From the NCBI GenBank assembly GCA_964344775.1, contig CAYFOO010000001.1, forward strand, positions 13,087 through 77,086: a DNA stretch of 64,000 nt, given 5' to 3'. The notes below the pieces were generated by a model, which was given only the letters and a program-made list of their open reading frames with translations, ran no database searches and was not told where the DNA came from. Each line of letters starts with the position of its first letter. Positions within the stretch are counted from its first letter, which is position 1. This document shows, one piece after another, positions 10,493-62,364 of the stretch. The DNA is from an uncultured Candidatus Peribacteria bacterium (GTDB lineage: Bacteria; Patescibacteriota; Gracilibacteria; UBA4473). The translations under genes and the position numbers were made by a program.

Positions 10493-10527
10493 ACTTTTGA
10501 CTTTTAACTTTTAACTTTCGACTTATT
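10493..10527. repeat. heptamer array ACTTTTG ACTTTTA ACTTTTA ACTTTCG ACTTATT
   Basis: Non-coding or 5'-coding copy of the ACTTTTG family, sitting exactly where a hypF start codon is expected. Confidence 0.75.
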
Positions 10528-12759
10528 CCCACGTACAAATTTACCATCACCGGAACAGTTCAGGGCGTCGGATTTCGACCATTTATTCTCCGTGAGGCAA
10601 AAAAAGCAGGGTTGGAAGGATATGTAAAAAATACAGGCATCGGCGTAGAAATCGTGGCCAACGATAAAAATAAAATTGCAAAAATCCTAGAGAATCTACC
10701 CCCTCTGGCCAAGATTGATCAAATTAAGATTCAAGAAATCAAAGATGAAAAATTTAAAGATTTTGTAATTCAAAATTCTTCCCGTACAGACGCCCAATTT
10801 GGGCGTCTCCATAATACAAAAACAAATTTTTCCATCCCCCCCGATATCACCACTTGTGATAAATGCCAAAAAGAATTATTTGATCGGGATGATCGAAGAT
10901 TTCAATATTTTTTCACGAGCTGCACCGACTGCGGTCCCAGATTTTCGATTACAGAGCAATTTCCCTTCGATCGGGAGAATACCACCTTGGAAAAATTCCC
11001 TATGTGCCCAGACTGCGAAAAAGAATACAAAAATCCGGAAGACCGAAGATTCCACGCACAAACTATCGCCTGTGAAAAATGTGGTCCTGTATTGTCCTTG
11101 TACTGTAAAGACACGCCACGGCGTGTCTCCACAGGAAAAAATGCCATAAAAAAAACAATTGATCTTCTCAAATCCGGAGAAATCATCGCCATCAAATCGA
11201 TCGGCGGATTTAGCTTGATCTGCCTGGCCGATGAAAAAACGGTCACAAAATTACGATCCCTCACCCACCGAAAAAACAAGCCTTTTGCCCTGATGGCCAA
11301 AGACATAAATATGATCAAAAATATTGTTCATATTTCTAAGAAAGAACAAGAAATTTTGGAGTCACGAGAGCGGCCAATCGTACTATTGCATCGTAAAGAC
11401 GCCCAAATTGGGCGTCTCAATCACATATCAGAAAACAGCTTCCTCGGATTTTGCCTCCCCTACACTCCCCTGCACCACCTAATTTTTGAGCATCTGGATG
11501 AACCCATCATCTTCACCTCATCCAATCTCCCCGGCATCCCAATTACCACAAAAAAAGAACAACAATTTGTCCCCCATGTCCTGGATTATGACCGGAAGAT
11601 CGCGAACTTTTCGGATGATTCGATCGTAAAAGTAATCGCTGATCATCCCCTCCTCATCCGCCGAAGTCGCGGATTTGTCCCCACAGAAATTCAGGTCCCT
11701 AAAAATTATCAAATATTTGAAGATGATATCCTCGCCGTCGGAGGAGAAATGAAAAACACCTTTTGTCTCAAAAAAGGAAACTCACTACTCCTTTCTCAAC
11801 ACCTAGGAAACACAGCCGGACTCGAGAACTTTGAAAATTTTCGCATCACGCTTGATAAATTTCTGAAATTTACTGGTGCCAAACCAAAGGTAATTCTGTG
11901 CGATAAAAATCCCTCCTTCAATACCCATCAATTTGCTCATGATTTTGCGAAGAAAAATAAGATTCAATGTGTGGAAATTCAACACCACGTGGCACACGTT
12001 TTTTCGACAGCACTCGAACACAATCTGACGAACTTCATCGGAATCGCTGCAGATGGCACCGGCTGGGGAGAGGGTAACAAAGTCTGGGGCGGAGAAGTTT
12101 TTCATAATGATCAGAGAATTGGAAAACTCGAAGATCAAACCCTCATGGGCGGGGACATCGCAAATAAAGAACCAGTCCGGATGCTCATCGGAATTTTATC
12201 CAAATTTTTAGATGAAAAAGAAATCATAAACCTGCTTCCAAATTTTAATGAAAAATTAATTAAAAATTGTATCAAACAAAAGAAAGAAAACTTCAACTGC
12301 ATTGAAAGCTCCAGTTGTGGACGGATCCTTGATTGCATATCTATCCTCCTCGGATTGGCGGATAAAAATGATTACGAAGGGCGATGTGCACAGATGTTAG
12401 AAATAAAAAATGACCTTCCAAAATTTAAAATTAAAAATTTAAAATTAAAAATTAAGGGAAAAGATAATTTAAATATTTTAGAAACTACTCCTCTTTTTCA
12501 ATTTCTCATTGAAAAGCTGGATAAAATCCCAAAAGAAGAGCTCGCACATCTAGCCCAACTCTACCTGGCTGAAGGGCTTCTGAAAATCACCCAAGATCAA
12601 AACCTCCCCATCGTCTGGAGCGGCGGCTGTGCTTACAACTCAATCATAACCAGCTTTTTGATTTCAAAAAATGTACTATTCAACAAAAACATTCCTTCTG
12701 GAGATGGGGGAATTTCTGCCGGACAAATTGCATACTTCCTTTGGAAAAAATTTAACTAA
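10525..12759 (+). CDS. hypF: [NiFe]-hydrogenase maturation carbamoyltransferase HypF
   Basis: Contains an acylphosphatase motif (GTVQGVGFRPF), two CxxC zinc-finger pairs, a YrdC-like block (IAIKSIGGFSL, KNKPFALM) and a Kae1-like C-terminus. The track start (TTG 10612) cuts the acylphosphatase motif. The frame is open from 10501 with no ATG/GTG/TTG, so ATT 10525 is a guess. Confidence 0.85.
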   Translation: MPTYKFTITGTVQGVGFRPFILREAKKAGLEGYVKNTGIGVEIVANDKNKIAKILENLPPLAKIDQIKIQEIKDEKFKDFVIQNSSRTDAQFGRLHNTKTNFSIPPDITTCDKCQKELFDRDDRRFQYFFTSCTDCGPRFSITEQFPFDRENTTLEKFPMCPDCEKEYKNPEDRRFHAQTIACEKCGPVLSLYCKDTPRRVSTGKNAIKKTIDLLKSGEIIAIKSIGGFSLICLADEKTVTKLRSLTHRKNKPFALMAKDINMIKNIVHISKKEQEILESRERPIVLLHRKDAQIGRLNHISENSFLGFCLPYTPLHHLIFEHLDEPIIFTSSNLPGIPITTKKEQQFVPHVLDYDRKIANFSDDSIVKVIADHPLLIRRSRGFVPTEIQVPKNYQIFEDDILAVGGEMKNTFCLKKGNSLLLSQHLGNTAGLENFENFRITLDKFLKFTGAKPKVILCDKNPSFNTHQFAHDFAKKNKIQCVEIQHHVAHVFSTALEHNLTNFIGIAADGTGWGEGNKVWGGEVFHNDQRIGKLEDQTLMGGDIANKEPVRMLIGILSKFLDEKEIINLLPNFNEKLIKNCIKQKKENFNCIESSSCGRILDCISILLGLADKNDYEGRCAQMLEIKNDLPKFKIKNLKLKIKGKDNLNILETTPLFQFLIEKLDKIPKEELAHLAQLYLAEGLLKITQDQNLPIVWSGGCAYNSIITSFLISKNVLFNKNIPSGDGGISAGQIAYFLWKKFN
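10788..10808. repeat. 21-nt palindrome AGACGCCCAATTTGGGCGTCT inside hypF
   Basis: 10+1+10 perfect. Translated as TDAQFGRL. Confidence 0.85.
11109..11128. repeat. 20-nt palindrome AGACACGCCACGGCGTGTCT inside hypF
   Basis: 9-bp arms. Translated as KDTPRRVS. Confidence 0.85.
11397..11417. repeat. 21-nt palindrome AGACGCCCAAATTGGGCGTCT inside hypF
   Basis: Same as 10788..10808 with the central base complemented, i.e. the opposite orientation. Translated as KDAQIGRL. Confidence 0.85.
12424..12458. repeat. heptamer array TTTAAAA TTAAAAA TTTAAAA TTAAAAA TTAAGGG inside hypF
   Basis: Translated as KFKIKNLKLKIKGK. Confidence 0.75.
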
Positions 12760-13183
12760 TTGTCCCACCAGCTTTTTCAACCGCTTTTTTTGCAGATTCG
12801 GAAATTGGCACCCCAGCGATCTCTACTTTTTTTGTAATTTTTCCGTTCCCCAAAATCTTAGCCATTTCTTTTTTACTTATTAGGTTTTTTGTCCGAAGAG
12901 AATCAATAGTCACCTTTTCTTTGTCTTTAAAATTTTCTTCCAAAACAGATAAATTAATGGCTCGGACCGCTACACGATTTGGATTTTTGAATCCTCGTAA
13001 TTTTGGCATTCGATCTAGAACTCCAGATTGTCCTCCTTCAAATCCAAGTCGTACACCACCTCCTGCTCGAGCGTTTTGCCCATTCATACCTCGACCAGAG
13101 AAAGTTCCTCTACCACTCCCATCACCTCGTCCAACTCTTTTTCGAGTTTTCCGTGCATTTGGCTTCAATTCATTTAGCTTCAT
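12752..13183 (-). CDS. rplO: 50S ribosomal protein L15
   Basis: RVGRGDGSGRGTFSGRGMNGQNARAGGG and the rest are typical L15. Last gene of the spc-like block. Confidence 0.95.
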   Translation of the reverse strand: MKLNELKPNARKTRKRVGRGDGSGRGTFSGRGMNGQNARAGGGVRLGFEGGQSGVLDRMPKLRGFKNPNRVAVRAINLSVLEENFKDKEKVTIDSLRTKNLISKKEMAKILGNGKITKKVEIAGVPISESAKKAVEKAGGTIS

Positions 13184-13212
13184 TGTTAATTAGTTGTTAG
13201 TTATTATTTTCA

Positions 13213-13240
13213 GGTTGTAGGTTATAGGTGGTAGGTGGGA
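13213..13240. repeat. heptamer array GGTTGTA GGTTATA GGTGGTA GGTGGGA
   Basis: Left arm of the S5|L15 spacer structure. Confidence 0.75.
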
Positions 13241-13275
13241 GGGATTTGTTTAAATTATGCCCTACCCTACTCCGC

Positions 13276-13295
13276 CGTCCCGAGGACTCGGGACG
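13276..13295. repeat. GC hairpin CGTCCCGAG-GA-CTCGGGACG
   Basis: Centre of the S5|L15 spacer. An inverted sibling with a shared flank lies at 54629..54656. Confidence 0.8.
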
Positions 13296-13304
13296 AAGGC
13301 CGGG

Positions 13305-13332
13305 CAACCTACAACTTCCCACTTACAACCTT
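13305..13332. repeat. heptamer array CAACCTA CAACTTC CCACTTA CAACCTT
   Basis: Reverse-complement family of 13213..13240 (right arm). Confidence 0.75.
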
Positions 13333-14265
13333 TTATTTTTTACTTTTAGCTTTCGACTTTTTGCCTGTTTCCTCTTTCTTCTTCGTTGTTTTCGCTTTTC
13401 CCTTGTCCTCCGTAGCTTTAGCGGAGGAGGATTCCTTCTTTACTGGTGCTTTCTTTTTTACTGCCTTTTTTTCCTCTTCTGTAGTTTTTTCACTTTTAAC
13501 TTTCGACTTTTGACTTTTGACTTCTTCACTTTCCACTTCTGCCTTTTTCTTGTTACTTGGTGGTGCTTCTGTTCGAAGTAAATTTAATGCTTCAAAAGTA
13601 GCATAAGCGGTATTCAACCTATTTCGTGAACCATGAGATTTAGAAAGCACATTTTTGATCCCTGCTAGGTCCAAAATAGTTCGTACTGATCCTCCTGCGA
13701 TCACCCCCGTACCTTCTGGTGCTGGAATTAAAATTACTTTGGTTGCTTTGAAGTAAGCTTCAATATCGTGAGGAATAGAATCTTCAAAAATTGGAACCGT
13801 CACTAATTTTTTCTTTGCCGCTGCTACAGCTTTTTGGATCCCTACCATCACTTCTGTTGCTTTTCCTACCCCAAGTCCGACTCGTCCTTTTTTGTCTCCA
13901 ATCGCTACCGTCACTTGAAATCGCATTCGTCGTCCTCCCTTCACCACACGAGTCACCCGAGAAATCCGGAGGATACTTTCTTCAAATTCCTTTTTTTCTC
14001 GTTCTCGTCCACCACCTCGACGACCACCACGACCACCTCTCTGACGTTTATCCTTGTGATCCCGGAGGTCTCTTTGATCTGGCTTCCCTTTTTCATCAGC
14101 CTTTTTTTCCTCTTTCTTCTCAGAAGCTTCCCTGTCGGTAGAAGCTGAAGCAGCGGAAGATTCTTCTGCCGATTTTTCAGTGGAAGCATCTTCAGGCTGT
14201 GTGGCCACCTCTGCTGGTGCAGCAGTTCCTTCTTTTTCCGGTGTTGTAGTAGCGTCTTCAGACAT
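13333..14265 (-). CDS. rpsE: 30S ribosomal protein S5 with long N- and C-terminal low-complexity extensions
   Basis: The core (ISRVTRVVKGGRRMRF...GTGVIAGGSVRTILDLAGIKNVLSKSHGS) is flanked by about 95 aa of acidic/RGG sequence and about 85 aa of Lys-rich tail. The tail is encoded by repeat modules. Confidence 0.9.
   Translation of the reverse strand: MSEDATTTPEKEGTAAPAEVATQPEDASTEKSAEESSAASASTDREASEKKEEKKADEKGKPDQRDLRDHKDKRQRGGRGGRRGGGREREKKEFEESILRISRVTRVVKGGRRMRFQVTVAIGDKKGRVGLGVGKATEVMVGIQKAVAAAKKKLVTVPIFEDSIPHDIEAYFKATKVILIPAPEGTGVIAGGSVRTILDLAGIKNVLSKSHGSRNRLNTAYATFEALNLLRTEAPPSNKKKAEVESEEVKSQKSKVKSEKTTEEEKKAVKKKAPVKKESSSAKATEDKGKAKTTKKKEETGKKSKAKSKK
13342..13362. repeat. heptamer array ACTTTTA GCTTTCG ACTTTTT (last codons of rpsE)
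   Basis: Encodes ...KSKAKSKK. Confidence 0.7.
13401..13431. repeat. CCTTGTCCTCCGTAGCTTTAGCGGAGGAGGA module inside the rpsE tail
   Basis: Family CCTGTCCGCCGTAGCCTTGGCGAAGGAGGA (42178..42210, 33288..33320). Translated as SSSAKATEDKG. Confidence 0.7.
13492..13526. repeat. heptamer array ACTTTTA ACTTTCG ACTTTTG ACTTTTG ACTTCTT inside the rpsE tail
   Basis: Encodes VKSQKSKVKS, the identical peptide to the carA insertion. Confidence 0.8.
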
Positions 14266-14341
14266 TATTATTTAGTTATAAATTTTTTCCTTAATTTTAA
14301 ACTTTGCATTTTAAATTTTTAATTTTGAAATTTTGATGAAA

Positions 14342-14680
14342 TCAAAACTTCAACCCTCCTTCGCGAGCTCCTTCTGCCAAGGCTTTTACTTGGCCATGGT
14401 ATTGATAACCATTTCGATCAAAGGCTACTTCTTCTACTTTTTTGGTCTTTGCCAATTTAGCAATTTCAGTCCCTACTTTTTTTGCTCCTTCGATTCCTGC
14501 TTTTCCTTTTAAGTTTGATGTTCCACAGAGTACTTTCCCAGTGCTGTCATCAACAATCTGAGCATAAATTGCTCGCAGAGAACGAAAAACAATCAGTCTA
14601 TTTCTTTCACTTGCACGAGCCTGTGCATGAGTTCTTCTCGCACGAGCTTGTCTTCTGTTAGCTTTTTCTTGGATATTCAT
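14342..14680 (-). CDS. rplR: 50S ribosomal protein L18
   Basis: 112 aa, typical L18 ([45 protein letters not shown]). Confidence 0.95.
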
Positions 14681-14742
14681 TTGTTCTTATTTACAAGATA
14701 TTTTCGTCACCCTGAGCGAAGTCGAAGGGTCTACCTTAATTT

Positions 14743-15300
14743 TTATGCTGCTTTAGCAGCGGATTTACCGGCTTTTCGAGCAACCTGCTCATCAATGTAC
14801 CGGATTCCTTTTCCTTTGTACGGCTCTGGTTTCCGATATTCACGAATATTAGCCGCTACCTGCCCTACCAATTGTTTATTGATTCCAGAAATCATAACAA
14901 TGTTATTATTTTTCTCATCTGGAAAACTGATTTCGATCCCTTCAGGAATGTTGAAATTGATTGGATGAGAAAATCCCAATTGCATTTCTAGAATTTTCCC
15001 CTTCAGGGCCACTCGATACCCTACTCCTTTGATCTCCAGAGTTTTGCTAAATCCATTTGATACCCCATCAACTAAATTTTGAGCAAGACTTTGATAAAGC
15101 CCATGTCGAGATTTAGCTTCCTTAGAATCATCTTTTCGACTTACCAAAAGTTGTCCATCTTCTATTTTTAGAGAAACATATTCTGGTTCAAATTTTTGGG
15201 TAAGTGTTCCCTTCGCTCCTTTTACAGACAATACATCATCCTGGATGGATATCTCCACTCCTGATGGTACAACTACTGGTTTATTTCCTATTCGAGACAT
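14743..15300 (-). CDS. rplF: 50S ribosomal protein L6
   Basis: 185 aa, begins MSRIGNKPVVVPSGVEI and contains LEIKGVGYRV. Confidence 0.95.
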   Translation of the reverse strand: MSRIGNKPVVVPSGVEISIQDDVLSVKGAKGTLTQKFEPEYVSLKIEDGQLLVSRKDDSKEAKSRHGLYQSLAQNLVDGVSNGFSKTLEIKGVGYRVALKGKILEMQLGFSHPINFNIPEGIEISFPDEKNNNIVMISGINKQLVGQVAANIREYRKPEPYKGKGIRYIDEQVARKAGKSAAKAA

Positions 15301-15303
15301 GAT

Positions 15304-15394
15304 TTAGTTATTAGTGGTTAGTTATTAGTGGTTAGTTTTTAGTTCTTAGTTTTTAATTCCGAAATCCGCATTTCGCATTCCGAAATTGAATTAG
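15304..15394. repeat. 13-unit in-phase heptamer array filling the whole rplF-rpsH spacer
   Basis: TTAGTTA TTAGTGG TTAGTTA TTAGTGG TTAGTTT TTAGTTC TTAGTTT TTAATTC CGAAATC CGCATTT CGCATTC CGAAATT GAATTAG. Confidence 0.85.
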
Positions 15395-15765
15395 CTTATT
15401 TCACATAATATTTCCCCCCCGATCTTCAATGCCCTGGCTTCATATCCCGTCATTACTCCTTTTGAAGTAGAAACGACCAATATTCCAAATCCGTTTGCTA
15501 CTTTCCGAATATCCTCTGCCCCAATGTAAATTCTCTGTCCTGGCTTCGAAACTCTTTTAAGGTTCATTGATTTTTCTGGTAATTCCAACTTGAGCACATC
15601 AAACTTATCAGCCTTTTCTTTTTTCACAGACTTCAAAAAATCATTTTTTTGCATTACTTTTGCAATTCGTTCTTTTGCTTGAGAATAAGGAATTTCTACC
15701 ATCCCCTGCTCAGCCATCTGAGCATTTCTGATTCGAGTGAGAAAATCTGCAATTGGATCGGTCAT
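15391..15765 (-). CDS. rpsH: 30S ribosomal protein S8
   Basis: 124 aa, begins MTDPIADFLTRIRNA and contains STSKGVMT. Confidence 0.95.
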   Translation of the reverse strand: MTDPIADFLTRIRNAQMAEQGMVEIPYSQAKERIAKVMQKNDFLKSVKKEKADKFDVLKLELPEKSMNLKRVSKPGQRIYIGAEDIRKVANGFGILVVSTSKGVMTGYEARALKIGGEILCEIS

Positions 15766-15769
15766 ATTA

Positions 15770-15846
15770 TTAGTTGTTAGAACTTAGAGCTTAGTTATTA
15801 GTTTTTTAATTCCGAAATCCGCATTCCGCGTTCCAAAATCGGATTA
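15770..15846. repeat. 11-unit in-phase heptamer array filling the whole rpsH-rpsN spacer
   Basis: TTAGTTG TTAGAAC TTAGAGC TTAGTTA TTAGTTT TTTAATT CCGAAAT CCGCATT CCGCGTT CCAAAAT CGGATTA. Confidence 0.85.
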
Positions 15847-16068
15847 CCACGATGATTTACGAACTCCTGGGATTTGCCCTTTTTCGGCGAGTTCTCGGAA
15901 GCAGCATCGGCAAATCCCAAAGTCTCGCATAAATCCATGAGGTCTTCCACAGAGTTTACAACGATTGTACGCTCGAGTAGAAAATTTTATCTTCCGCCCT
16001 TCCTTCTTCGCCTGAAGATGTCTGGCTAGAAATTTCTGAGATTTGTGAACGATTGCTTTTCGTGCCAT
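15844..16068 (-). CDS. rpsN: 30S ribosomal protein S14, zinc-binding (type Z)
   Basis: [10 protein letters not shown]...[22 protein letters not shown]. At 74 aa it is slightly longer than the usual type Z form. Confidence 0.9.
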
Positions 16069-16080
16069 TTTTTAAAAAAA

Positions 16081-16635
16081 TTATTCTTTCTTGAAAGGAA
16101 AATTAAAAGATTCAAGAAGTTTCAACGCGTGCTCTGAATTCTCAGAGGTGGTTACAATAGTTACTTGAAATCCAAAAGGTTGATTAAGCTCGTCACTCAG
16201 CTCCACTTCTGGGAAAACAGTATGCTCGGTAAACCCAATAGAACAGTTTCCTTTTTTATCAAAGATCCTTCTAGAAACCCCTCGGAAGTCTCGTACCCGT
16301 GGAAAAACCACATTGATCATCTTGTCGAGAAAATCATACGCTCGATCTTTTCGGAGAGTTACGGCTAATCCTACTGGCATTCCTTCTCGAAGCTTGAAGT
16401 TGGAAACAGAAAGCCGTGCTTTTCTGACAGATGGTTTTTGTCCTGTAATCTGTGTGATCGCGTTAGCCAAAAGTTCTTCGTGTTTTTTTCCAGTTCTGTG
16501 TAAATAAGAGCCCATCCCCACATTGATACAAATTTTCTCAATTCTTGGAACCTCCATTACATTTTTAAGTCCCAAATCCTTTTGCAATTTGGCAATTCCT
16601 GTTTTTCGAAAATCGGTAAGTAGATTTGATTTCAT
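16081..16635 (-). CDS. rplE: 50S ribosomal protein L5
   Basis: 184 aa, typical L5 blocks (NVMEVPRIEKICINVGMG, RDFRGVS). Confidence 0.95.
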   Translation of the reverse strand: MKSNLLTDFRKTGIAKLQKDLGLKNVMEVPRIEKICINVGMGSYLHRTGKKHEELLANAITQITGQKPSVRKARLSVSNFKLREGMPVGLAVTLRKDRAYDFLDKMINVVFPRVRDFRGVSRRIFDKKGNCSIGFTEHTVFPEVELSDELNQPFGFQVTIVTTSENSEHALKLLESFNFPFKKE

Positions 16636-16637
16636 GA

Positions 16638-16979
16638 TTATGCTTTCACAGCAGTTTTAGTTTTTTTAGCGAGAGGTAGGACTTTACCAGAAGATTTTGA
16701 AATACGTGTTTTTTTGCCGCTGTCACTAAGTTTGTATCCAATCCGTGAAGGTTTCTTTGTTTCTGGATCGATGATCGCAATGTTGGAAATATGGATTGGA
16801 GCAAAAAACTCTACTCGTTCTCCCGGCTCTCCACCTCGTGGTTTTACGTGTTTTACTTTCTTATTTATACCTTCAACTTGCACAAGACCTCGATTTTCAA
16901 AAATTTTGAAAATTGCACCTTGTTTTCCTTTGTCTTTACCGGTTTGTACGACTACGTTGTCTCCAATTCGAAATTTCAT
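16638..16979 (-). CDS. rplX: 50S ribosomal protein L24
   Basis: KOW motif (IGDNVVVQTGKDKGKQG). It is the first gene of the block, and no L14 lies upstream. Confidence 0.9.
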   Translation of the reverse strand: MKFRIGDNVVVQTGKDKGKQGAIFKIFENRGLVQVEGINKKVKHVKPRGGEPGERVEFFAPIHISNIAIIDPETKKPSRIGYKLSDSGKKTRISKSSGKVLPLAKKTKTAVKA

Positions 16980-21557: not shown

Positions 21558-22632
21558 ATTCATCAAAAAGATATGCCGCATCCTCCGGCCCCGCACACGC
21601 CTCCGGATGAAACTGTACGGAAAAGATTGGTTTTCCTTTGTGTCGGATACCTTCAACAGACCCATCATTGAGATTTTTGAACCAAACCTCAAAATCAGGC
21701 GGCAAAGAATCCCCATCCACCTCGTATCCGTGATTTTGCGAAGTAATTAAACACCTTTTTGTACCACTTTTGACTTTTGACTTTTGACTTTTGACTTGAA
21801 TTACCGGCTGATTCACCCCCCGATGTCCGTATTTCATCTTTTTTGTTTTTCCTCCCGCAGCAAGTGAAAGAATCTGATTTCCCAAGCAAATCCCAAAAAT
21901 CGGTAATTCCCTTGTCATCGACTGCCGAGCAATTTCGATGGTCTCCACTACTTTTTCTGGATCTCCTGGCCCATTGGAAATGAAAATGCCATCAATCTTC
22001 TCTCCCAGATCAAAAGGTGGATGATTGTACGGCATTCGTAAAATTCGGATTCCTCGCTGAAGAAAATTTCGTAGAATTCCATTCTTCGCTCCACAATCCA
22101 TAAAAGCAATCGTTTTTCCGGTCGGATTTTCCGGTTCCAGAATTTCCATTCCTTCCGGAGAAACAGAGGGGACAAATCTTCCCCCCAGTTCATCTTCAAA
22201 TTTCACTGGTTTTTTGTCGCCCAATTTACCCAAGATTGTTCCCTTTTCTCGTAGAATTTGTGTTAACTCCCGTGTATCAATCCCAGAAATCGCTGGAATA
22301 CCTTGCTCTTTGAGCCAATCCATAAAACTTTTCACTGCTTCGCAATGAGAGAACTTCAACGATTCTTCGGTTAAAATGACTCCTCGAACCCAGATTTTTT
22401 TACTTTCAAATGTTTGATCTACGTTGTCCTGAAAAGACTTTACTTCCGGCACACCATAGTTCCCAATCAGCGGAAAAGTGAACGTCACGATTTGTCCAAA
22501 ATAGCTCGGATCCGTGAGAGTTTCGAGATATCCGGTCATTCCGGTAGTGAAAACAACCTCCCCTTCGGCTTCGCTCTCTGCTCCGAAAGAGGTACCTTCA
22601 AATGTTTTTCCGTTCGCGAGAAAGAGTTTCAT
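21541..22632 (-). CDS. carA: carbamoyl-phosphate synthase small (glutaminase) subunit, with in-frame repeat insertion
   Basis: Typical CarA blocks (GICLGNQIL, GHRGVNQPV, ITSQNHGYEV, FSVQFHPEA). VKSQKSKVKS is encoded by four exact ACTTTTG units at 21766..21793. No carB is adjacent. Confidence 0.9.
   Translation of the reverse strand: MKLFLANGKTFEGTSFGAESEAEGEVVFTTGMTGYLETLTDPSYFGQIVTFTFPLIGNYGVPEVKSFQDNVDQTFESKKIWVRGVILTEESLKFSHCEAVKSFMDWLKEQGIPAISGIDTRELTQILREKGTILGKLGDKKPVKFEDELGGRFVPSVSPEGMEILEPENPTGKTIAFMDCGAKNGILRNFLQRGIRILRMPYNHPPFDLGEKIDGIFISNGPGDPEKVVETIEIARQSMTRELPIFGICLGNQILSLAAGGKTKKMKYGHRGVNQPVIQVKSQKSKVKSGTKRCLITSQNHGYEVDGDSLPPDFEVWFKNLNDGSVEGIRHKGKPIFSVQFHPEACAGPEDAAYLFDEFIREL
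21766..21798. repeat. (ACTTTTG)x4 exact + ACTTG inside carA
   Basis: Exact tandem units counted directly. Confidence 0.9.
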
Positions 22633-22638
22633 AGGATT

Positions 22639-22673
22639 TGGTATCTGGTATTTAGTATATGGTATGTGGGGAA
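22639..22673. repeat. heptamer array TGGTATC TGGTATT TAGTATA TGGTATG TGGGGAA
   Basis: In the carA-gatA spacer. Confidence 0.75.
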
Positions 22674-22689
22674 ATTTTGAAACAAAAAT

Positions 22690-22724
22690 TACTGTTCACT
22701 GTTAGTTGCTAGTTGCTCGTTGTA
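22690..22724. repeat. heptamer array TACTGTT CACTGTT AGTTGCT AGTTGCT CGTTGTA
   Basis: Spans the gatA stop codon and its last codons. Confidence 0.75.
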
Positions 22725-33264: not shown

Positions 33265-33287
33265 AATAATCTAAGTTCTAAGCTCTA

Positions 33288-33320
33288 CCTGTCCGCCGAA
33301 GCTCGTAGAGCGAAGGGGGG
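33288..33320. repeat. CCTGTCCGCCGAAGCTCGTAGAGCGAAGGGGGG module
   Basis: Non-coding copy, downstream of dnaK, of the family that is translated in rpsE and in the NDP-sugar transferase. Confidence 0.65.
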
Positions 33321-33331
33321 AGTTCTACCAA

Positions 33332-38087: not shown

Positions 38088-38215
38088 AAATTAGAAAATT
38101 TTTAATTTTGTAATTTTTAATTTTATAAATAAATCCTAATTTTTAATTTTTAAAAATAGCAAAAAACAGTCTCTAAGAATTTGACTTTAAAAATTTGAGC
38201 ATTAAAAATTCCTTA
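38088..38215. repeat. AT-only composite heptamer repeat, copy B
   Basis: Contains the exact 38-mer AAAATTTTTAATTTTGTAATTTTTAATTTTATAAATAA shared with copy A. Boundaries are approximate. Confidence 0.75.
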
Positions 38216-38263
38216 CAACTTACCACCTCCCACCTACAACTTTTTAAAAAACTAACAACTAAT
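38215..38263. repeat. heptamer array ACAACTT ACCACCT CCCACCT ACAACTT TTTAAAA AACTAAC AACTAAT
   Basis: ACAACYT family, immediately upstream of ndk. Confidence 0.75.
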
Positions 38264-38267
38264 TTCC

Positions 38268-38814: not shown

Positions 38815-38936
38815 GAATAGATTTATGTCTAAAGTTTTGTGGACAAACAATCTGCAATCATTGATCATACTTGTCGGCTGAAGTTTGTAACTATAGTTAA
38901 AACTAACGAAGGCTGAAATCTACAATTAAAAAATAA

Positions 38937-41973: not shown

Positions 41974-43000
41974 CATGCAACCTCGTCCCTCGCCGCACGA
42001 GCTTCCGGTTGAGATCAAGTCCCTCGAAGTCACAACCCTCATCAATCACCGATTGCGAAATAATGCAGTTTTTTAATTTAACATTCGGATAAATGATCGA
42101 ATCCTGAATCCGACAATTTTGGATTTCTGAATCTTCCCCAATAAAAACCTTTCCAGAAAATTTATTCCCTTGATTTTGCCTGTCCGCCGTAGCCTTGGCG
42201 AAGGAGGAAGTTTTAAGTTTTGAGCTTTGAGCTAGTTTTAAATCCTCTTTTTGAAGTTTTCTATGTGCCTCCAGATACGTCTCAAAACTCCCCACATCAA
42301 ACCACTCTCCTCCTACTTTCACGGCTGATAATTTTTTTCCATGAGCTAAAAACTCGGTAAAAACTCCACCGAGAGAATCAGCCTCTTTCTGGGCAAAACT
42401 GTGCAAAATCGGCAATAAATCTTTCCCAATCCCAAAGAATCCAGTCGAAACTAAGTTCGATTTCGGATTCTCCGGCTTCTCCTCAAACCTCTTAATTAAA
42501 AAATCTTTTCTATTTTGATTTTTTAATTCCGCATTTCGCATTCCGAAATCCGAAATCTCCACCACTCCAAACTTCCGTGCTTCATATAAATCCTCCACCT
42601 CTCGCACCGCCACCTTTCCCTCTTTTTCTGAACAAAAAAGTTGATCAATATGTAATTCTGGAAGGAGGTTGTCTCCGGCAATCACCACCAGATTCTCATC
42701 AATAGAAAAATATTTGATCGCCATCGAAAGAGCTCCCACCGCCCCCAGTTTCTCCTGGTCTGAGTGGGCATCCTCACAAAAAATTTCTACATTCTTTCGT
42801 CCTAATTTTTCTAGCTCTTTTTGGAAATCGGCTTCAAATCTTTTGTTTGTAAGCAAAATCACCTCCAGGTCAGCTGGAACCTTCTCGAGAATATGTGTCA
42901 AAATCGTCTGTCCATCGAGAAGCAGGAGCGGCTTCGCTCGGTGCTCAGTCAGCGGCCACAACCGTGTCGCAAATCCGCCAGCTAAAATTAGGACTTTCAT
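41960..43000 (-). CDS. sugar-1-phosphate nucleotidyltransferase with C-terminal left-handed beta-helix, carrying repeat-derived insertions
   Basis: MKVLILAGGFATRLWPLT and an LbH-like C-terminus (IGEDSEIQNCRIQDSIIYPNVKLKNCII). The internal DFGMRNAELKN and KLKTSSFAKATADRQ segments are encoded by repeat modules. Confidence 0.8.
   Translation of the reverse strand: MKVLILAGGFATRLWPLTEHRAKPLLLLDGQTILTHILEKVPADLEVILLTNKRFEADFQKELEKLGRKNVEIFCEDAHSDQEKLGAVGALSMAIKYFSIDENLVVIAGDNLLPELHIDQLFCSEKEGKVAVREVEDLYEARKFGVVEISDFGMRNAELKNQNRKDFLIKRFEEKPENPKSNLVSTGFFGIGKDLLPILHSFAQKEADSLGGVFTEFLAHGKKLSAVKVGGEWFDVGSFETYLEAHRKLQKEDLKLAQSSKLKTSSFAKATADRQNQGNKFSGKVFIGEDSEIQNCRIQDSIIYPNVKLKNCIISQSVIDEGCDFEGLDLNRKLVRRGTRLHESEQ
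42178..42235. repeat. GC module GCCTGTCCGCCGTAGCCTTGGCGAAGGAGGAAG plus heptamers AAGTTTT GAGCTTT GAGCTAG, inside a CDS
   Basis: Translated as KLAQSSKLKTSSFAKATADRQ in the interdomain linker. Confidence 0.75.
42526..42560. repeat. heptamer array ATTCCGC ATTTCGC ATTCCGA AATCCGA AATCTCC inside a CDS
   Basis: Translated as EISDFGMRNAE, in the same frame as the RdgB C-terminus. Confidence 0.8.
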
Positions 43001-54373: not shown

Positions 54374-54638
54374 GATTTAGAGGGTTAGATAATACATTTT
54401 TTCTTATTTTCTCAAGATGGTTAGTTCTTTATCTCACCCCCTGAAAAATTAAGAAATACAAAGATTAGCCAAATTTTACTGATACAACTGGCTTCCGTCA
54501 AATTTTAAAAAATTGGCGAATCATACCAATTTCAACTAGGAAGTATTATATTTCCGTCTACGTAATTTTTAAAAACTAATTATACAAACTTCCCACTACG
54601 CTCTTCTTTCCTTTGTTTACCAGCTTCGCCCGACCTTC

Positions 54639-54656
54639 GTCCCGAGGACTCGGGAC
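54639..54656. repeat. GC hairpin GTCCCGAG-GA-CTCGGGAC
   Basis: Sibling of 13276..13295, with shared flank CCCGRCCTTC in the opposite orientation. Confidence 0.8.
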
Positions 54657-54712
54657 TTCGGTGGGGGGACCAGGACAGGTCGTCGGACAGATGGCGAGAT
54701 CGATTTTTTGAA

Positions 54713-58661: not shown

Positions 58662-58790
58662 AACTTAGAGAAATTCGAAGTTCTTTTTTTTACAGATTTG
58701 AATAAATAAAATAAATATTTACAATCTTAAAAACTTAATTTTAATATTTAAAACTAAGTTCTAACAACTAATCTCTAAGTTCTAGTAACT

Positions 58791-60984: not shown

Positions 60985-61254
60985 ATGACAAGATCCTCAA
61001 AGAAAGGGCCATACGTAGATCCTCGCCTCATGAAAAAGGTGAATGCTATGGAGGCAGCTGGCCAAAAAAAGGTAATCAAAACCTGGTCACGGGCTTGTGT
61101 GATTGCTCCAGAGTTTGTGGGGCACACGTTTGGGGTGCATAATGGGAAGGAGCATATTCCGGTTTTTTGCTCAGAATCTATGGTGGGGCACAGACTGGGA
61201 GAGTTCTCTCCAACTCGTAGATTTAGGAGTCATGGAGGGAAATTAGCGAAGTAA
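60985..61254 (+). CDS. rpsS: 30S ribosomal protein S19
   Basis: SSKKGPYVD...HNGKEHIPV. Has its own TTGACA-16-TAGAAT promoter, and no L2 lies upstream. Confidence 0.95.
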
Positions 61255-61258
61255 AAAA

Positions 61259-61293
61259 GTGGGAAGTTGTAGGTTGTAAGTTGTAAGGCATAA
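61259..61293. repeat. heptamer array GTGGGAA GTTGTAG GTTGTAA GTTGTAA GGCATAA
   Basis: Left arm of the S19|L22 spacer. Confidence 0.8.
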
Positions 61294-61310
61294 TTCAATT
61301 TTTAAAATCC

Positions 61311-61345
61311 CTACAACCTATTACCTACCACTTACAACCTGAAAA
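61311..61345. repeat. heptamer array CTACAAC CTATTAC CTACCAC TTACAAC CTGAAAA
   Basis: Right arm of the S19|L22 spacer, the reverse-complement family of the left arm. Confidence 0.8.
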
Positions 61346-61371
61346 ATTTATAACTCAATTTAAAATTATTA

Positions 61372-61704
61372 ATGAAAGCACATCTGAGAGGAATTCGAAT
61401 TTCACCGAAAAAAGCCAATGTAGTGGCTGGATTGGTTCGTGAGAAGAAAGCTTTGGAAGCTTTGGAAATTTTGAAATTCACTCCCAAAAAAGCAGCAAAA
61501 GTGTTGTACAAAGTACTTCATTCAGCAGTAGCCAATGCGGAAGGAAACGACAAAAAGAAAAAAGAAGACCTGCAAATAAAAGATATCACCGTAAACAAAG
61601 GGCCGGTTTACAAAAGGTATCTTCCTTCTACCCGAGGAAGGGCATTGCCAATTCAAAAACCTACTTCACATATTTCTATTGAGTTGGAAGTACCAAATTC
61701 ATAA
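61372..61704 (+). CDS. rplV: 50S ribosomal protein L22
   Basis: 110 aa (RISPKKANVVAGLVREKKALEAL...). Confidence 0.9.
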   Translation: MKAHLRGIRISPKKANVVAGLVREKKALEALEILKFTPKKAAKVLYKVLHSAVANAEGNDKKKKEDLQIKDITVNKGPVYKRYLPSTRGRALPIQKPTSHISIELEVPNS

Positions 61705-61719
61705 TTTCATCAAAAAAAC

Positions 61720-62364
61720 ATGGGAAAAAAAGTTAGTCCGATATCTCTCCGAATAGGAATCACCCGAACTTGGGATTCTCTCTGGTACGATCGAAAGAAT
61801 TTTGCTCAAAAGTTTCTCCAGGACATCGCTATTCGGAAGTTTCTCAAAGAAAAAGGCAAGGAAGCGGGTATCGCAAAAATAGAAATTCACAGACATCCAG
61901 GAAAAACAGCGATCATCGTCCACTGCGGAAAACCGGGAATTATCATTGGTCGAAGCGGTGAAAATGTAGAATTACTTACCAAAGAATTGCGATCAAAGTT
62001 CGGAGAAGCGTTTGAACTTTCTATTCAAGAAATCCGAAAACCGGATGGGAATGCAGAGCTTGTAGCGGCTTCTGTGGCAGATCAAATCTCTCGAAGGTTC
62101 CCATACCGTCGGGTAGCAAAAATGGCAATAGATCGAGCAAAGGAATCTGGAGCAAAAGGAATTAAAATCACCGTGAGTGGGCGTCTCAATGGAGTGGATA
62201 TTGCCCGAAGAGAAAGTTATGCCTTTGGAACCGTACCGCTTCATACTTTACGGGCAAACATTGATTATGCCACCGCTCGAGCAGAAACTACTTATGGAAC
62301 TATTGGGGTGAAGGTATGGATTTATCAGGGATTGGTTTTTAAAAACGAAAAATTGAACGGTTAA
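61720..62364 (+). CDS. rpsC: 30S ribosomal protein S3
   Basis: MGKKVSPISLRIGI..., a KH domain, and GRLNGVDIARRE. No L16 follows. Confidence 0.95.
   Translation: MGKKVSPISLRIGITRTWDSLWYDRKNFAQKFLQDIAIRKFLKEKGKEAGIAKIEIHRHPGKTAIIVHCGKPGIIIGRSGENVELLTKELRSKFGEAFELSIQEIRKPDGNAELVAASVADQISRRFPYRRVAKMAIDRAKESGAKGIKITVSGRLNGVDIARRESYAFGTVPLHTLRANIDYATARAETTYGTIGVKVWIYQGLVFKNEKLNG

Follow-up and report, generated by a model that had tools for sequence, protein, structure and literature searches.

How does a core ribosomal protein come to end in a tail written largely in DNA repeats that otherwise lie between genes? The question is raised by rpsE, the gene of ribosomal protein uS5, in a stretch of 64,000 nucleotides (nt) from an uncultured Candidatus Peribacteria bacterium (assembly GCA_964344775.1, contig CAYFOO010000001.1, positions 13,087 to 77,086); we refer to this whole stretch as the window. 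Its best protein and genome matches are to Candidatus Peribacteria, Gracilibacteria. An initial annotation had proposed that spacer repeats were exonised into a Lys-rich tail of this protein. Our analysis supports a modified answer. We consider it likely that the uS5 tail was rebuilt and lengthened in this lineage by two spacer-type DNA repeats, a heptamer repeat and a GC-rich hairpin, on disordered extensions that are typical of the clade.

The rpsE product is 310 amino acids (aa) long, with the stop codon at 13333-13335, and its conserved core ends at residue 232 (...FEALNLLRTEAP), both as initially annotated from the open reading frame (ORF). Pfam S5_N (PF00333; residues 94-158, 79.8 bits) and S5_C (PF03719; residues 172-232, 89.5 bits) score over their cut-offs. 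Both domains, together with the spc-type position between rplR (L18) and rplO (L15), identify the protein as uS5. The gene order is L24-L5-S14-S8-L6-L18-S5-L15; uL30 is absent, a trait described as general in bacteria of the Candidate Phyla Radiation (CPR) (PMC9297842). Outside the core lie a 93-aa N-terminal extension and a C-terminal tail of ~76-78 aa. A structure model of uS5 built on an 11-sequence alignment was poor (mean pLDDT 49.7) and was used solely for the lack of predicted secondary structure beyond residues 98-232, where confidence was also low.

The tail had been described as containing three repeat modules, and Tandem Repeats Finder (TRF), a mismatch scan and register analysis recovered all of them (Table 1). 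In the sense strand, heptamer tract 1 reads GGCAGAA GTGGAAA GTGAAGAA GTCAAAA GTCAAAA GTCGAAA GTTAAAA GTGAAAA and encodes the peptide ...VESEEVKSQKSKVKSEK... (also given as ...SEEVKSQKSKVKSEK...). The GC-rich hairpin module (GC module), TCCTCCTCCGCTAAAGCTACGGAGGACAAGG in the sense strand, is translated as SSSAKATEDKG; its core GCTACGGAGGACAAG (13402-13416) has two mismatches to the family sequence GCTACGGCGGACAGG. The module is 58% GC, compared with 37% for the Lys-rich tail as a whole. The terminal array, tract 2, is larger than first claimed. It consists of 14 heptamers in a single unbroken register, from 13400 down to 13303: GAAAAGC GAAAACA ACGAAGA AGAAAGA GGAAACA GGCAAAA AGTCGAA in the first half and AGCTAAA AGTAAAA AATAAAA GGTTGTA AGTGGGA AGTTGTA GGTTGCC in the second. 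Tract 2 thereby spans the final ~21 codons of the gene (...KKSKAKSKK), the TAA stop, contained in the unit AATAAAA, and 30 nt at the start of the rpsE-rplO spacer. Since the tract is continuous with the spacer array, rpsE now ends inside a spacer-type array. Altogether, DNA-level repeat families that elsewhere lie mostly between genes account for ~55 of the 76 codons of the tail.

A low-complexity tail rich in AAA and AAG Lys codons might resemble AT-rich spacers by chance. The composition of the tail fits such a resemblance, as do the Lys-rich tails of relatives, which lack obvious repeats. However, the frequency of matches at a distance of 7 nt (lag 7) stayed at background through the N-terminal extension and the core of rpsE, reached 0.5-0.69 over residues 232-258 and increased again from residue 288 to beyond the stop. 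The tail contains 111 lag-7 matches in 221 positions. When the peptide was held fixed and codons were redrawn from the usage of the window, 82 ± 6 matches were obtained and none of 5000 resamplings reached 111; neither did any of 5000 codon shuffles. Thus, the periodicity is a property of the DNA and not of the peptide. The Ser codons of the tail, AGT and TCG, follow the pattern required by a 7-nt register, and the GC-module motif uses TCC, GCC, ACG, GAC and AAG where DNA is available, all minority choices in this 40% GC genome. Moreover, the tail contains two exact copies of the 18-mer AAGTCGAAAGYTAAAAGT (13342-59 and 13492-509) and the leader of hypF a third (10507-24); with up to three mismatches this 18-mer has 10 matches in the window, compared with 0.21 expected. 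The shared 18-mer, the resampling test and the register of tract 2 effectively refute chance resemblance, to which we assign next to no probability.

The repeats of the tail belong to families that are dispersed over the window. An autocorrelation scan detected 33 lag-7 tracts, compared with 0.4 in block shuffles. Other lags gave 0-7 tracts, and apart from lag 7 only its multiples 14 and 21 were enriched. The lag-7 tracts are concentrated outside the chosen ORFs, with 24 of the 33 in this 9.6% of the window. Their units fall into the families CAAAAGT, AACTAAN, CGGAATG, AAAATTN, AATTCGT and AGGTTGT. The GC module GCTACGGCGGACAGG matched four sites in the window at ≤3 mismatches (0.36 expected; none of 100 shuffles reached four), and we recognise three short-form copies and, by eye, one long form upstream of 38937. 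About five copies were found in contigs of a sister genome (GCA_964344165.1, from the same sample; loci L007, L017 and L018), in spacers and in a hypothetical gene. Over both genomes about half of the copies lie in coding DNA, and no inverted doublets were seen. A consensus from six copies forms a hairpin of eight pairs, two of them with compensatory changes. All coding copies found have the same orientation, the same frame and GC-rich rare codons. The non-coding copies of the two families named in the initial annotation, at 10493-10527 in the hypF leader and at 33288-33320 on the 3' side of dnaK, are present as described. Rfam gave no matches in the window at gathering thresholds and nothing meaningful at E≤1 for 12700-16100, indicating that the spacer elements belong to no described family of RNAs.

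Comparison with the sister genome revealed how these repeats behave within genes. The sister loci carry heptamer tracts of the same families, while loci of more distant Peribacteria show few or none. In the gene for an NDP-sugar pyrophosphorylase, a GC module at 42177-42209 is translated as SSFAKATADRQ in the same frame as in uS5, as had been noted before. The sister gene lacks exactly these 30 nt, inside an NCAAAAT tract, a clean in-frame indel; the module is also absent from all 14 other homologues aligned. In carA, a perfect heptamer tract (Table 1) accounts for 9 extra aa in comparison with human CPS1, with the sister genome and with most relatives: the loop is 20 residues long in the window and 11 residues long in the sister (VQDLKSQKCLI), as in 35 of 53 relatives. 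Conversely, the S8-L6 spacer contains a GC module in the sister that is absent from the orthologous spacer of the window. Thus, repeats of both kinds are gained or lost as units, and in frame when within genes.

The uS5 of the sister has 270 aa, with a tail of 51 aa compared with 76 aa here. It carries a heptamer tract at the position of tract 1, but one that differs in length and has GAAGCAA-type units. Its GC module (KKEPASAKASPEKEK) is homologous, recognisable and more decayed, and occupies the same place in the tail. The terminal heptamer tract is missing; instead the tail ends in a KKAPA repeat with a period of 15 nt. Because the GC module of the tail lies at the homologous place in the nearest relative, it is inherited rather than recently captured. 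Tract 1 and the GC module would accordingly be old, their position being common to both species, and the terminal tract appears to be lineage-specific. Scans of genomes and metagenomes for strains closer than the sister returned this one close species (L007/L017/L018) and distant Peribacteria.

Might the heptamer tracts have arisen without any transfer? Under a common mutational bias, independent 7-nt slippage from local seeds would generate them in situ in genes and in spacers; the tail would have a process in common with the spacers but no sequences, and nothing would have been exonised. Heptanucleotides have been reported to be the commonest long simple repeats in many prokaryotes, with slippage proposed (Mrazek et al. 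2007, as cited in PMC4679880). In relatives, the site of the carA tract already reads LKSQK, which may have been a seed, and the different unit at the same place in the sister uS5 would also fit. In contrast, the ordered pair of variant units GTCGAAA followed by GTTAAAA or GCTAAAA recurs at three loci, as an exact or one-mismatch 18-mer, which independent slippage should not reproduce. This common order argues for the tracts being copies of one another. Furthermore, the GC module is no tandem repeat and comes and goes as a 30-nt unit, and tract 2 passes into the spacer array without a physical break. Slippage without transfer is unlikely on this evidence.

The extension as such is not a product of the repeats. 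In a survey of the 120 best uS5 homologues, all 118 that could be measured have extensions (median N-terminal ~54 aa, C-terminal ~48 aa), including lineages whose loci show no heptamer tracts. This is the comparison of rpsE lengths and tails across relatives that the initial annotation had proposed as a check. Its claim of exonisation is borne out in part. Most tail codons are encoded by mostly intergenic families, tract 2 runs across the stop into the spacer, the modules are translated in unrelated enzymes as well, and the differences from the sister amount to in-frame entry or expansion in coding DNA. However, a Lys-rich tail was not created by the repeats, and its GC module is an inherited one. 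Nor is the acidic/RGG N-terminal extension unusual, as had been stated; with its RGG run it aligns across the clade and is typical of it. The periodicity of this extension is 3 nt, not 7 nt. In contrast to the tail, its RGG run (14009-14037) has a 3/9/12-nt periodicity, that of a codon-level repeat.

In the extensions of the 118 homologues, a SAKATxDK-type motif, the peptide of the GC module when read in its usual frame, was counted 13 times, compared with 0.05 in shuffles. Its positions vary and include both N- and C-terminal extensions, which suggests that GC modules may have been captured repeatedly across the clade. In the window protein's N-terminal extension, the segment SSAASASTDRE (14122-14157) aligns with SAEATPDK modules of relatives and may be a decayed GC module. 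At only ~58% nt identity (by eye) it fails the scan at ≤3 mismatches, and we do not count it as a copy.

Repeats are prone to misassembly, and the +1 frame of the tail is open for ~30 codons. The long ORF could then be an artefact of misassembly or of a lost stop, with the real protein ending near the core; a misassembled stop had been named at the outset as a possible refutation. The 310-aa product is, however, identical in the 77-kb ENA contig (MEGAHIT-type) and in each of two Logan assemblies, the data coming from two sequencing runs. This identity in three independent assemblies shows that the long ORF is no assembly artefact. In addition, every relative has a tail of comparable composition, and the sister tail aligns through the GC module. 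A protein that ends near the core is thus highly improbable.

An alternative of more weight is that the tracts are selected cis-acting elements at the nucleic acid level, for example platforms for binding, or leaders without structure from which the next gene is translated. The control region of rplO would then extend into the 3' end of rpsE, and the tail peptide would be a tolerated by-product of this overlap. Several features agree with this. Tracts of AACTAA(N) lie in sense orientation directly upstream of start codons at 13184-13208, 14266-14285, 15301-15330, 15766-15800, 38245-38267 and 58760-58790. Of 67 start codons, 14 have a sense AACTAA in the 40 nt upstream (1.1 expected) and none has an antisense one, and GGAG-type Shine-Dalgarno motifs are depleted (3 compared with 11 expected). 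These tracts may be the translation-initiation leader of this lineage, as a substitute for the Shine-Dalgarno sequence. The 78-nt S14-S8 spacer (15766-15843) consists of one CGGAAT and one CTAA tract and shares 91% identity with its counterpart in the sister (L007 2551-2627), whereas in the flanking genes identical codons agree at just 52-69% of their third positions; the tracts of this spacer are probably functional. Likewise, the heptamer tract of the NDP-sugar gene is ~88% identical between both genomes (hand count on the alignment), all CGGAAT-type tracts were seen in sense orientation, and the TAACTGA repeats of Beggiatoaceae have been proposed to be translational signals (PMC4679880). 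Tract 2 may in part belong to the control region of rplO.

However, this reading leaves tract 1 and the GC module unexplained, both being 130-200 nt upstream of the stop and far from rplO. The two species have different units in tract 1, the sister lacks tract 2, and one TTAGTTN tract is antisense to its flanking genes. We therefore hold it to be rather unlikely that selection on the nucleic acid accounts for the tail, though somewhat less so than slippage without transfer.

Composite palindromes, in which inverted AGGTTGT-type arms surround a short centre, were observed at 13207-13332, 54628-54668, 61254-61345 and 38208-38245. The centre of the rpsE-rplO palindrome is a GC hairpin (GTCCCGAGGACTCGGGAC), with a second copy at 54628-54668. 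This element has a predicted fold of -48.6 kcal/mol (z -2.9), and related copies of it lie at 54628-68 and 61254-61345. As an intrinsic terminator the rpsE-rplO hairpin was rejected: the fold is strong, but by sequence reading no U-run follows the hairpin.

Returning to repeat-driven rebuilding of the tail, we infer the mechanisms of spread, the translation of the tail and its retention on the ribosome, and its function, along the following lines. Heptamer tracts would form by slippage in a 7-nt register and, as the recurrence of identically ordered variant units at several places suggests, would then also be copied from locus to locus. The GC hairpin would be a dispersed, REP-like mobile unit that is gained or lost whole and tends to sit inside heptamer tracts. 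Selection would purge most repeat events from coding DNA. The survivors would have a stop-free orientation, a net length that is a multiple of three and a hydrophilic peptide in a loop or at a disordered end, and the uS5 tail would be one such permissive site. With its K/S/V/Q-rich and SAKATEDK-type segments, it would most likely form a generic polycationic, unstructured tail on the surface of the 30S subunit, and no specific new domain.

The sister genome encodes a REP-associated tyrosine transposase (RAYT; L018 8155-8733, 193 aa; NF047646, 100.6 bits against a cut-off of 80). Its gene is wedged between gatA and carA, with gaps of 8 nt and 4 nt; the syntenic spacer of the window (22633-22701) contains no such gene.

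Several points weigh against this account. The direction of transfer, from spacer to gene, is not demonstrable from these data. The ancestral carA loop already reads KSQK, and expansion in situ fits there as well as insertion. Some spacer tracts are conserved far above synonymous sites and may be selected rather than products of neutral slippage. No RAYT was detected in the window or at any other locus by tblastn with the sister protein, nor in the Pfam listings of the 10 kb beyond the window start, and no GC modules flank the sister RAYT. The tail showed neither variation in copy number nor frameshifts; all further copies of this rpsE that were recovered are identical, and ongoing slippage is thus not demonstrated. 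Finally, translation of the tail and its retention on the ribosome are presumptive.

A broader interpretation, which we regard as possible though doubtful, is that this Peribacteria lineage harbours an active two-component repeat system of multi-family heptamers and a REP-like hairpin, the latter possibly mobilised by RAYT, which would both supply non-coding signals and seed new protein sequence. AACTAA-type leaders would replace Shine-Dalgarno sites, and loops and termini, the tail of a core ribosomal protein among them, would continually be seeded with new sequence. As 7 and 3 are coprime, all three reading frames are on offer in each tract. If such a system exists, a minimal genome could remodel disordered protein ends rapidly and independently of frame through gain and loss of tracts.

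Each of the two repeats has counterparts among known systems. Rickettsia palindromic elements (RPE), reportedly described by Ogata et al. in 2000, are 100-150 bp long and specific to Rickettsia, and occur between genes as well as in frame within conserved genes at surface or permissive sites, where they persist as additional segments of the peptide. The GC module is likewise a dispersed palindrome found between genes and in frame in conserved genes, as in the 30-nt indel of the NDP-sugar gene. Unlike RPE, it is only ~30 nt long (~50 nt in the long form), shows no sequence relationship to them and is invariably translated in one and the same frame. It resembles REP and REPIN elements in being a short (20-40 nt), GC-rich, imperfect palindrome that is dispersed and gained or lost as a unit, with a RAYT in the sister genome. 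Classical REPs are extragenic by definition. The GC module further differs in the lack of inverted doublets among the copies seen, the absence of flanking modules at the RAYT and of a RAYT in the window, and its low copy number in the available sequence. Membership of the REP/RAYT system is plausible but unproven.

For the heptamers, the cyanobacterial STRR repeats, which are said to have been described by Mazel et al. in 1990, are a possible parallel; our search of the literature on them gave fingerprinting papers only. The closest precedent is the system of TAACTGA direct repeats known from marine Beggiatoaceae and some Cyanobacteria and Bacteroidetes (MacGregor 2015, PMC4679880). These are mostly intergenic, lie near start codons, in some cases overlap stops and are occasionally translated at protein peripheries in a stop-free orientation (PMC4679880). 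The tracts of the window are similar in that 7-nt units are arranged in tandem, with an excess of head-to-tail copies, in an overwhelmingly intergenic distribution. Some extend over stop codons, some are translated at the protein periphery, and many lie directly upstream of starts without a Shine-Dalgarno sequence, including in ribosomal protein operons. The TAACTGA unit itself is not represented; the nearest unit here is AACTAAN. Unlike the TAACTGA system, there are several unit families, the units vary within a tract and the host is a CPR bacterium. Also unlike it, tracts lie in internal loops of enzymes and in a core ribosomal protein and are combined with a GC hairpin. In the literature searched, no description of heptamer or tandem repeats in Peribacteria or Peregrinibacteria was found.

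Ribosomal proteins of CPR bacteria are described as having lineage-specific Ala/Lys-rich extensions (Tsurumaki et al. 2022, PMC9297842). Passages in the main text deal with uS19, uS13, uS15 and other extended proteins; in these passages uS5 is not listed and a DNA-repeat origin is not mentioned. The uS5 tail fits this pattern as a basic, low-complexity C-terminal extension of a small-subunit protein, here with uL30 lacking and uS5 and uL15 adjacent. It would provide a concrete, datable example of how non-coding repeats become protein sequence, and this in a bacterium whose genome is very small and in a ribosomal protein that is conserved universally. Some of the variation in length among CPR ribosomal extensions can thus come from DNA-level repeats and not from selection for new ribosomal function, which is relevant to their structural interpretation. 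The locus also exposes a genome-wide system of heptamers and hairpins in Peribacteria that may include a substitute for the Shine-Dalgarno sequence, and its greater interest lies in this view of a lineage-wide repeat system rather than in a single gene.

Table 1. Coordinates of rpsE, its repeat modules and related repeat copies in the window.
Feature	Position	Strand	Basis or remarks
rpsE (uS5)	13333..14265	minus	ORF list; Pfam S5_N and S5_C; between rplR and rplO
uS5 N-terminal extension, residues 1-93	13987..14265	minus	acidic/Ala-rich stretch, then RGG repeats
Conserved uS5 core, residues 94-232	13570..13986	minus	Pfam domains and alignment; lag 7 at background
Heptamer tract 1	13487..13547	minus	TRF period 7, 8.6 copies
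GC-rich hairpin module (~30 nt)	13401..13431	minus	family matches, consensus hairpin, rare codons, sister homologue
Heptamer tract 2	13303..13400	minus	register analysis, lag-7 profile, 18-mer at 13342-59
rpsE-rplO spacer	13184..13332	minus	inverted AGGTTGT-type heptamer arms around GC hairpin, then AACTAA leader to rplO start
ACTTTTR heptamer copy, non-coding leader	10493..10527	plus	upstream of hypF, abuts start region
GC module, non-coding	33286..33321	plus	inside TCTAAGT heptamer tract, 3' of dnaK
Perfect ACTTTTG x4.6 tract in carA	21766..21797	minus	encodes VKSQKSKVKS, as in the S5 tail
GC module (SSFAKATADR) and heptamer tract in NDP-sugar pyrophosphorylase gene	42177..42236	minus	alignment to sister genome

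Translated heptamers were also found in other proteins. The CGGAATG family gives rise to cyclically permuted GMRNAEL peptides in two unrelated proteins. In the NDP-sugar pyrophosphorylase, a CGGAATG tract (DFGMRNAEL) encodes the loop DFGMRNAELK (42526-42557), which corresponds to a 13-residue insertion relative to PDB 7whr. In a Ham1-family ITPase, the same family encodes the C-terminus NAELGMRNVE* (2196-2228). The C-terminal end of an amidase (Pfam Amidase, probably GatA) is, like that of the ITPase, heptamer-encoded. An AAAATTN tract, LPKFKIKNLKLKIKG, is present in hypF.

NDP-sugar pyrophosphorylases of other Peribacteria and Gracilibacteria (P0124, P0125, P0126, P0156 and P0160) carry different, longer inserts at the same two sites (columns 180-270 and 355-400 of alignment A2), with peptides of the PFxKGG/PLIKGGGG type. 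We read these peptides as putative translations of GC-rich hairpin repeats, and it appears that, across the clade, various repeats have landed in these two loops time and again.

In hypF, no ATG, GTG or TTG occurs between the in-frame stop at 10498 and the conserved acylphosphatase motif (YKFTITGTVQGVGFRPF); the first canonical start, a TTG at 10612, would cut into the domain, and the ACTTTTR tract abuts this region. Either a non-canonical start (e.g. ATT at ~10525) is used or the tract displaced the original start.

The ~50-nt long form of the GC module (ACTTGTCGGCTGAAGTTTGTAACTATAGTTAAAACTAACGAAGGCTGAAATC; 38869-38920) lies upstream of a gene for a 941-aa protein resembling type IV secretion system (T4SS) coupling proteins. 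It resembles the long forms at L007 3051-3100 and L017 ~2000-2054.

The ribosomal protein genes of the window are scattered. L27 (58314-58592) and S19-L22-S3 (60985-62364) are both on the plus strand, ~40 kb from the minus-strand L24...L15 block (12752-16979), and S3 is followed by an unannotated ORF of 487 aa.

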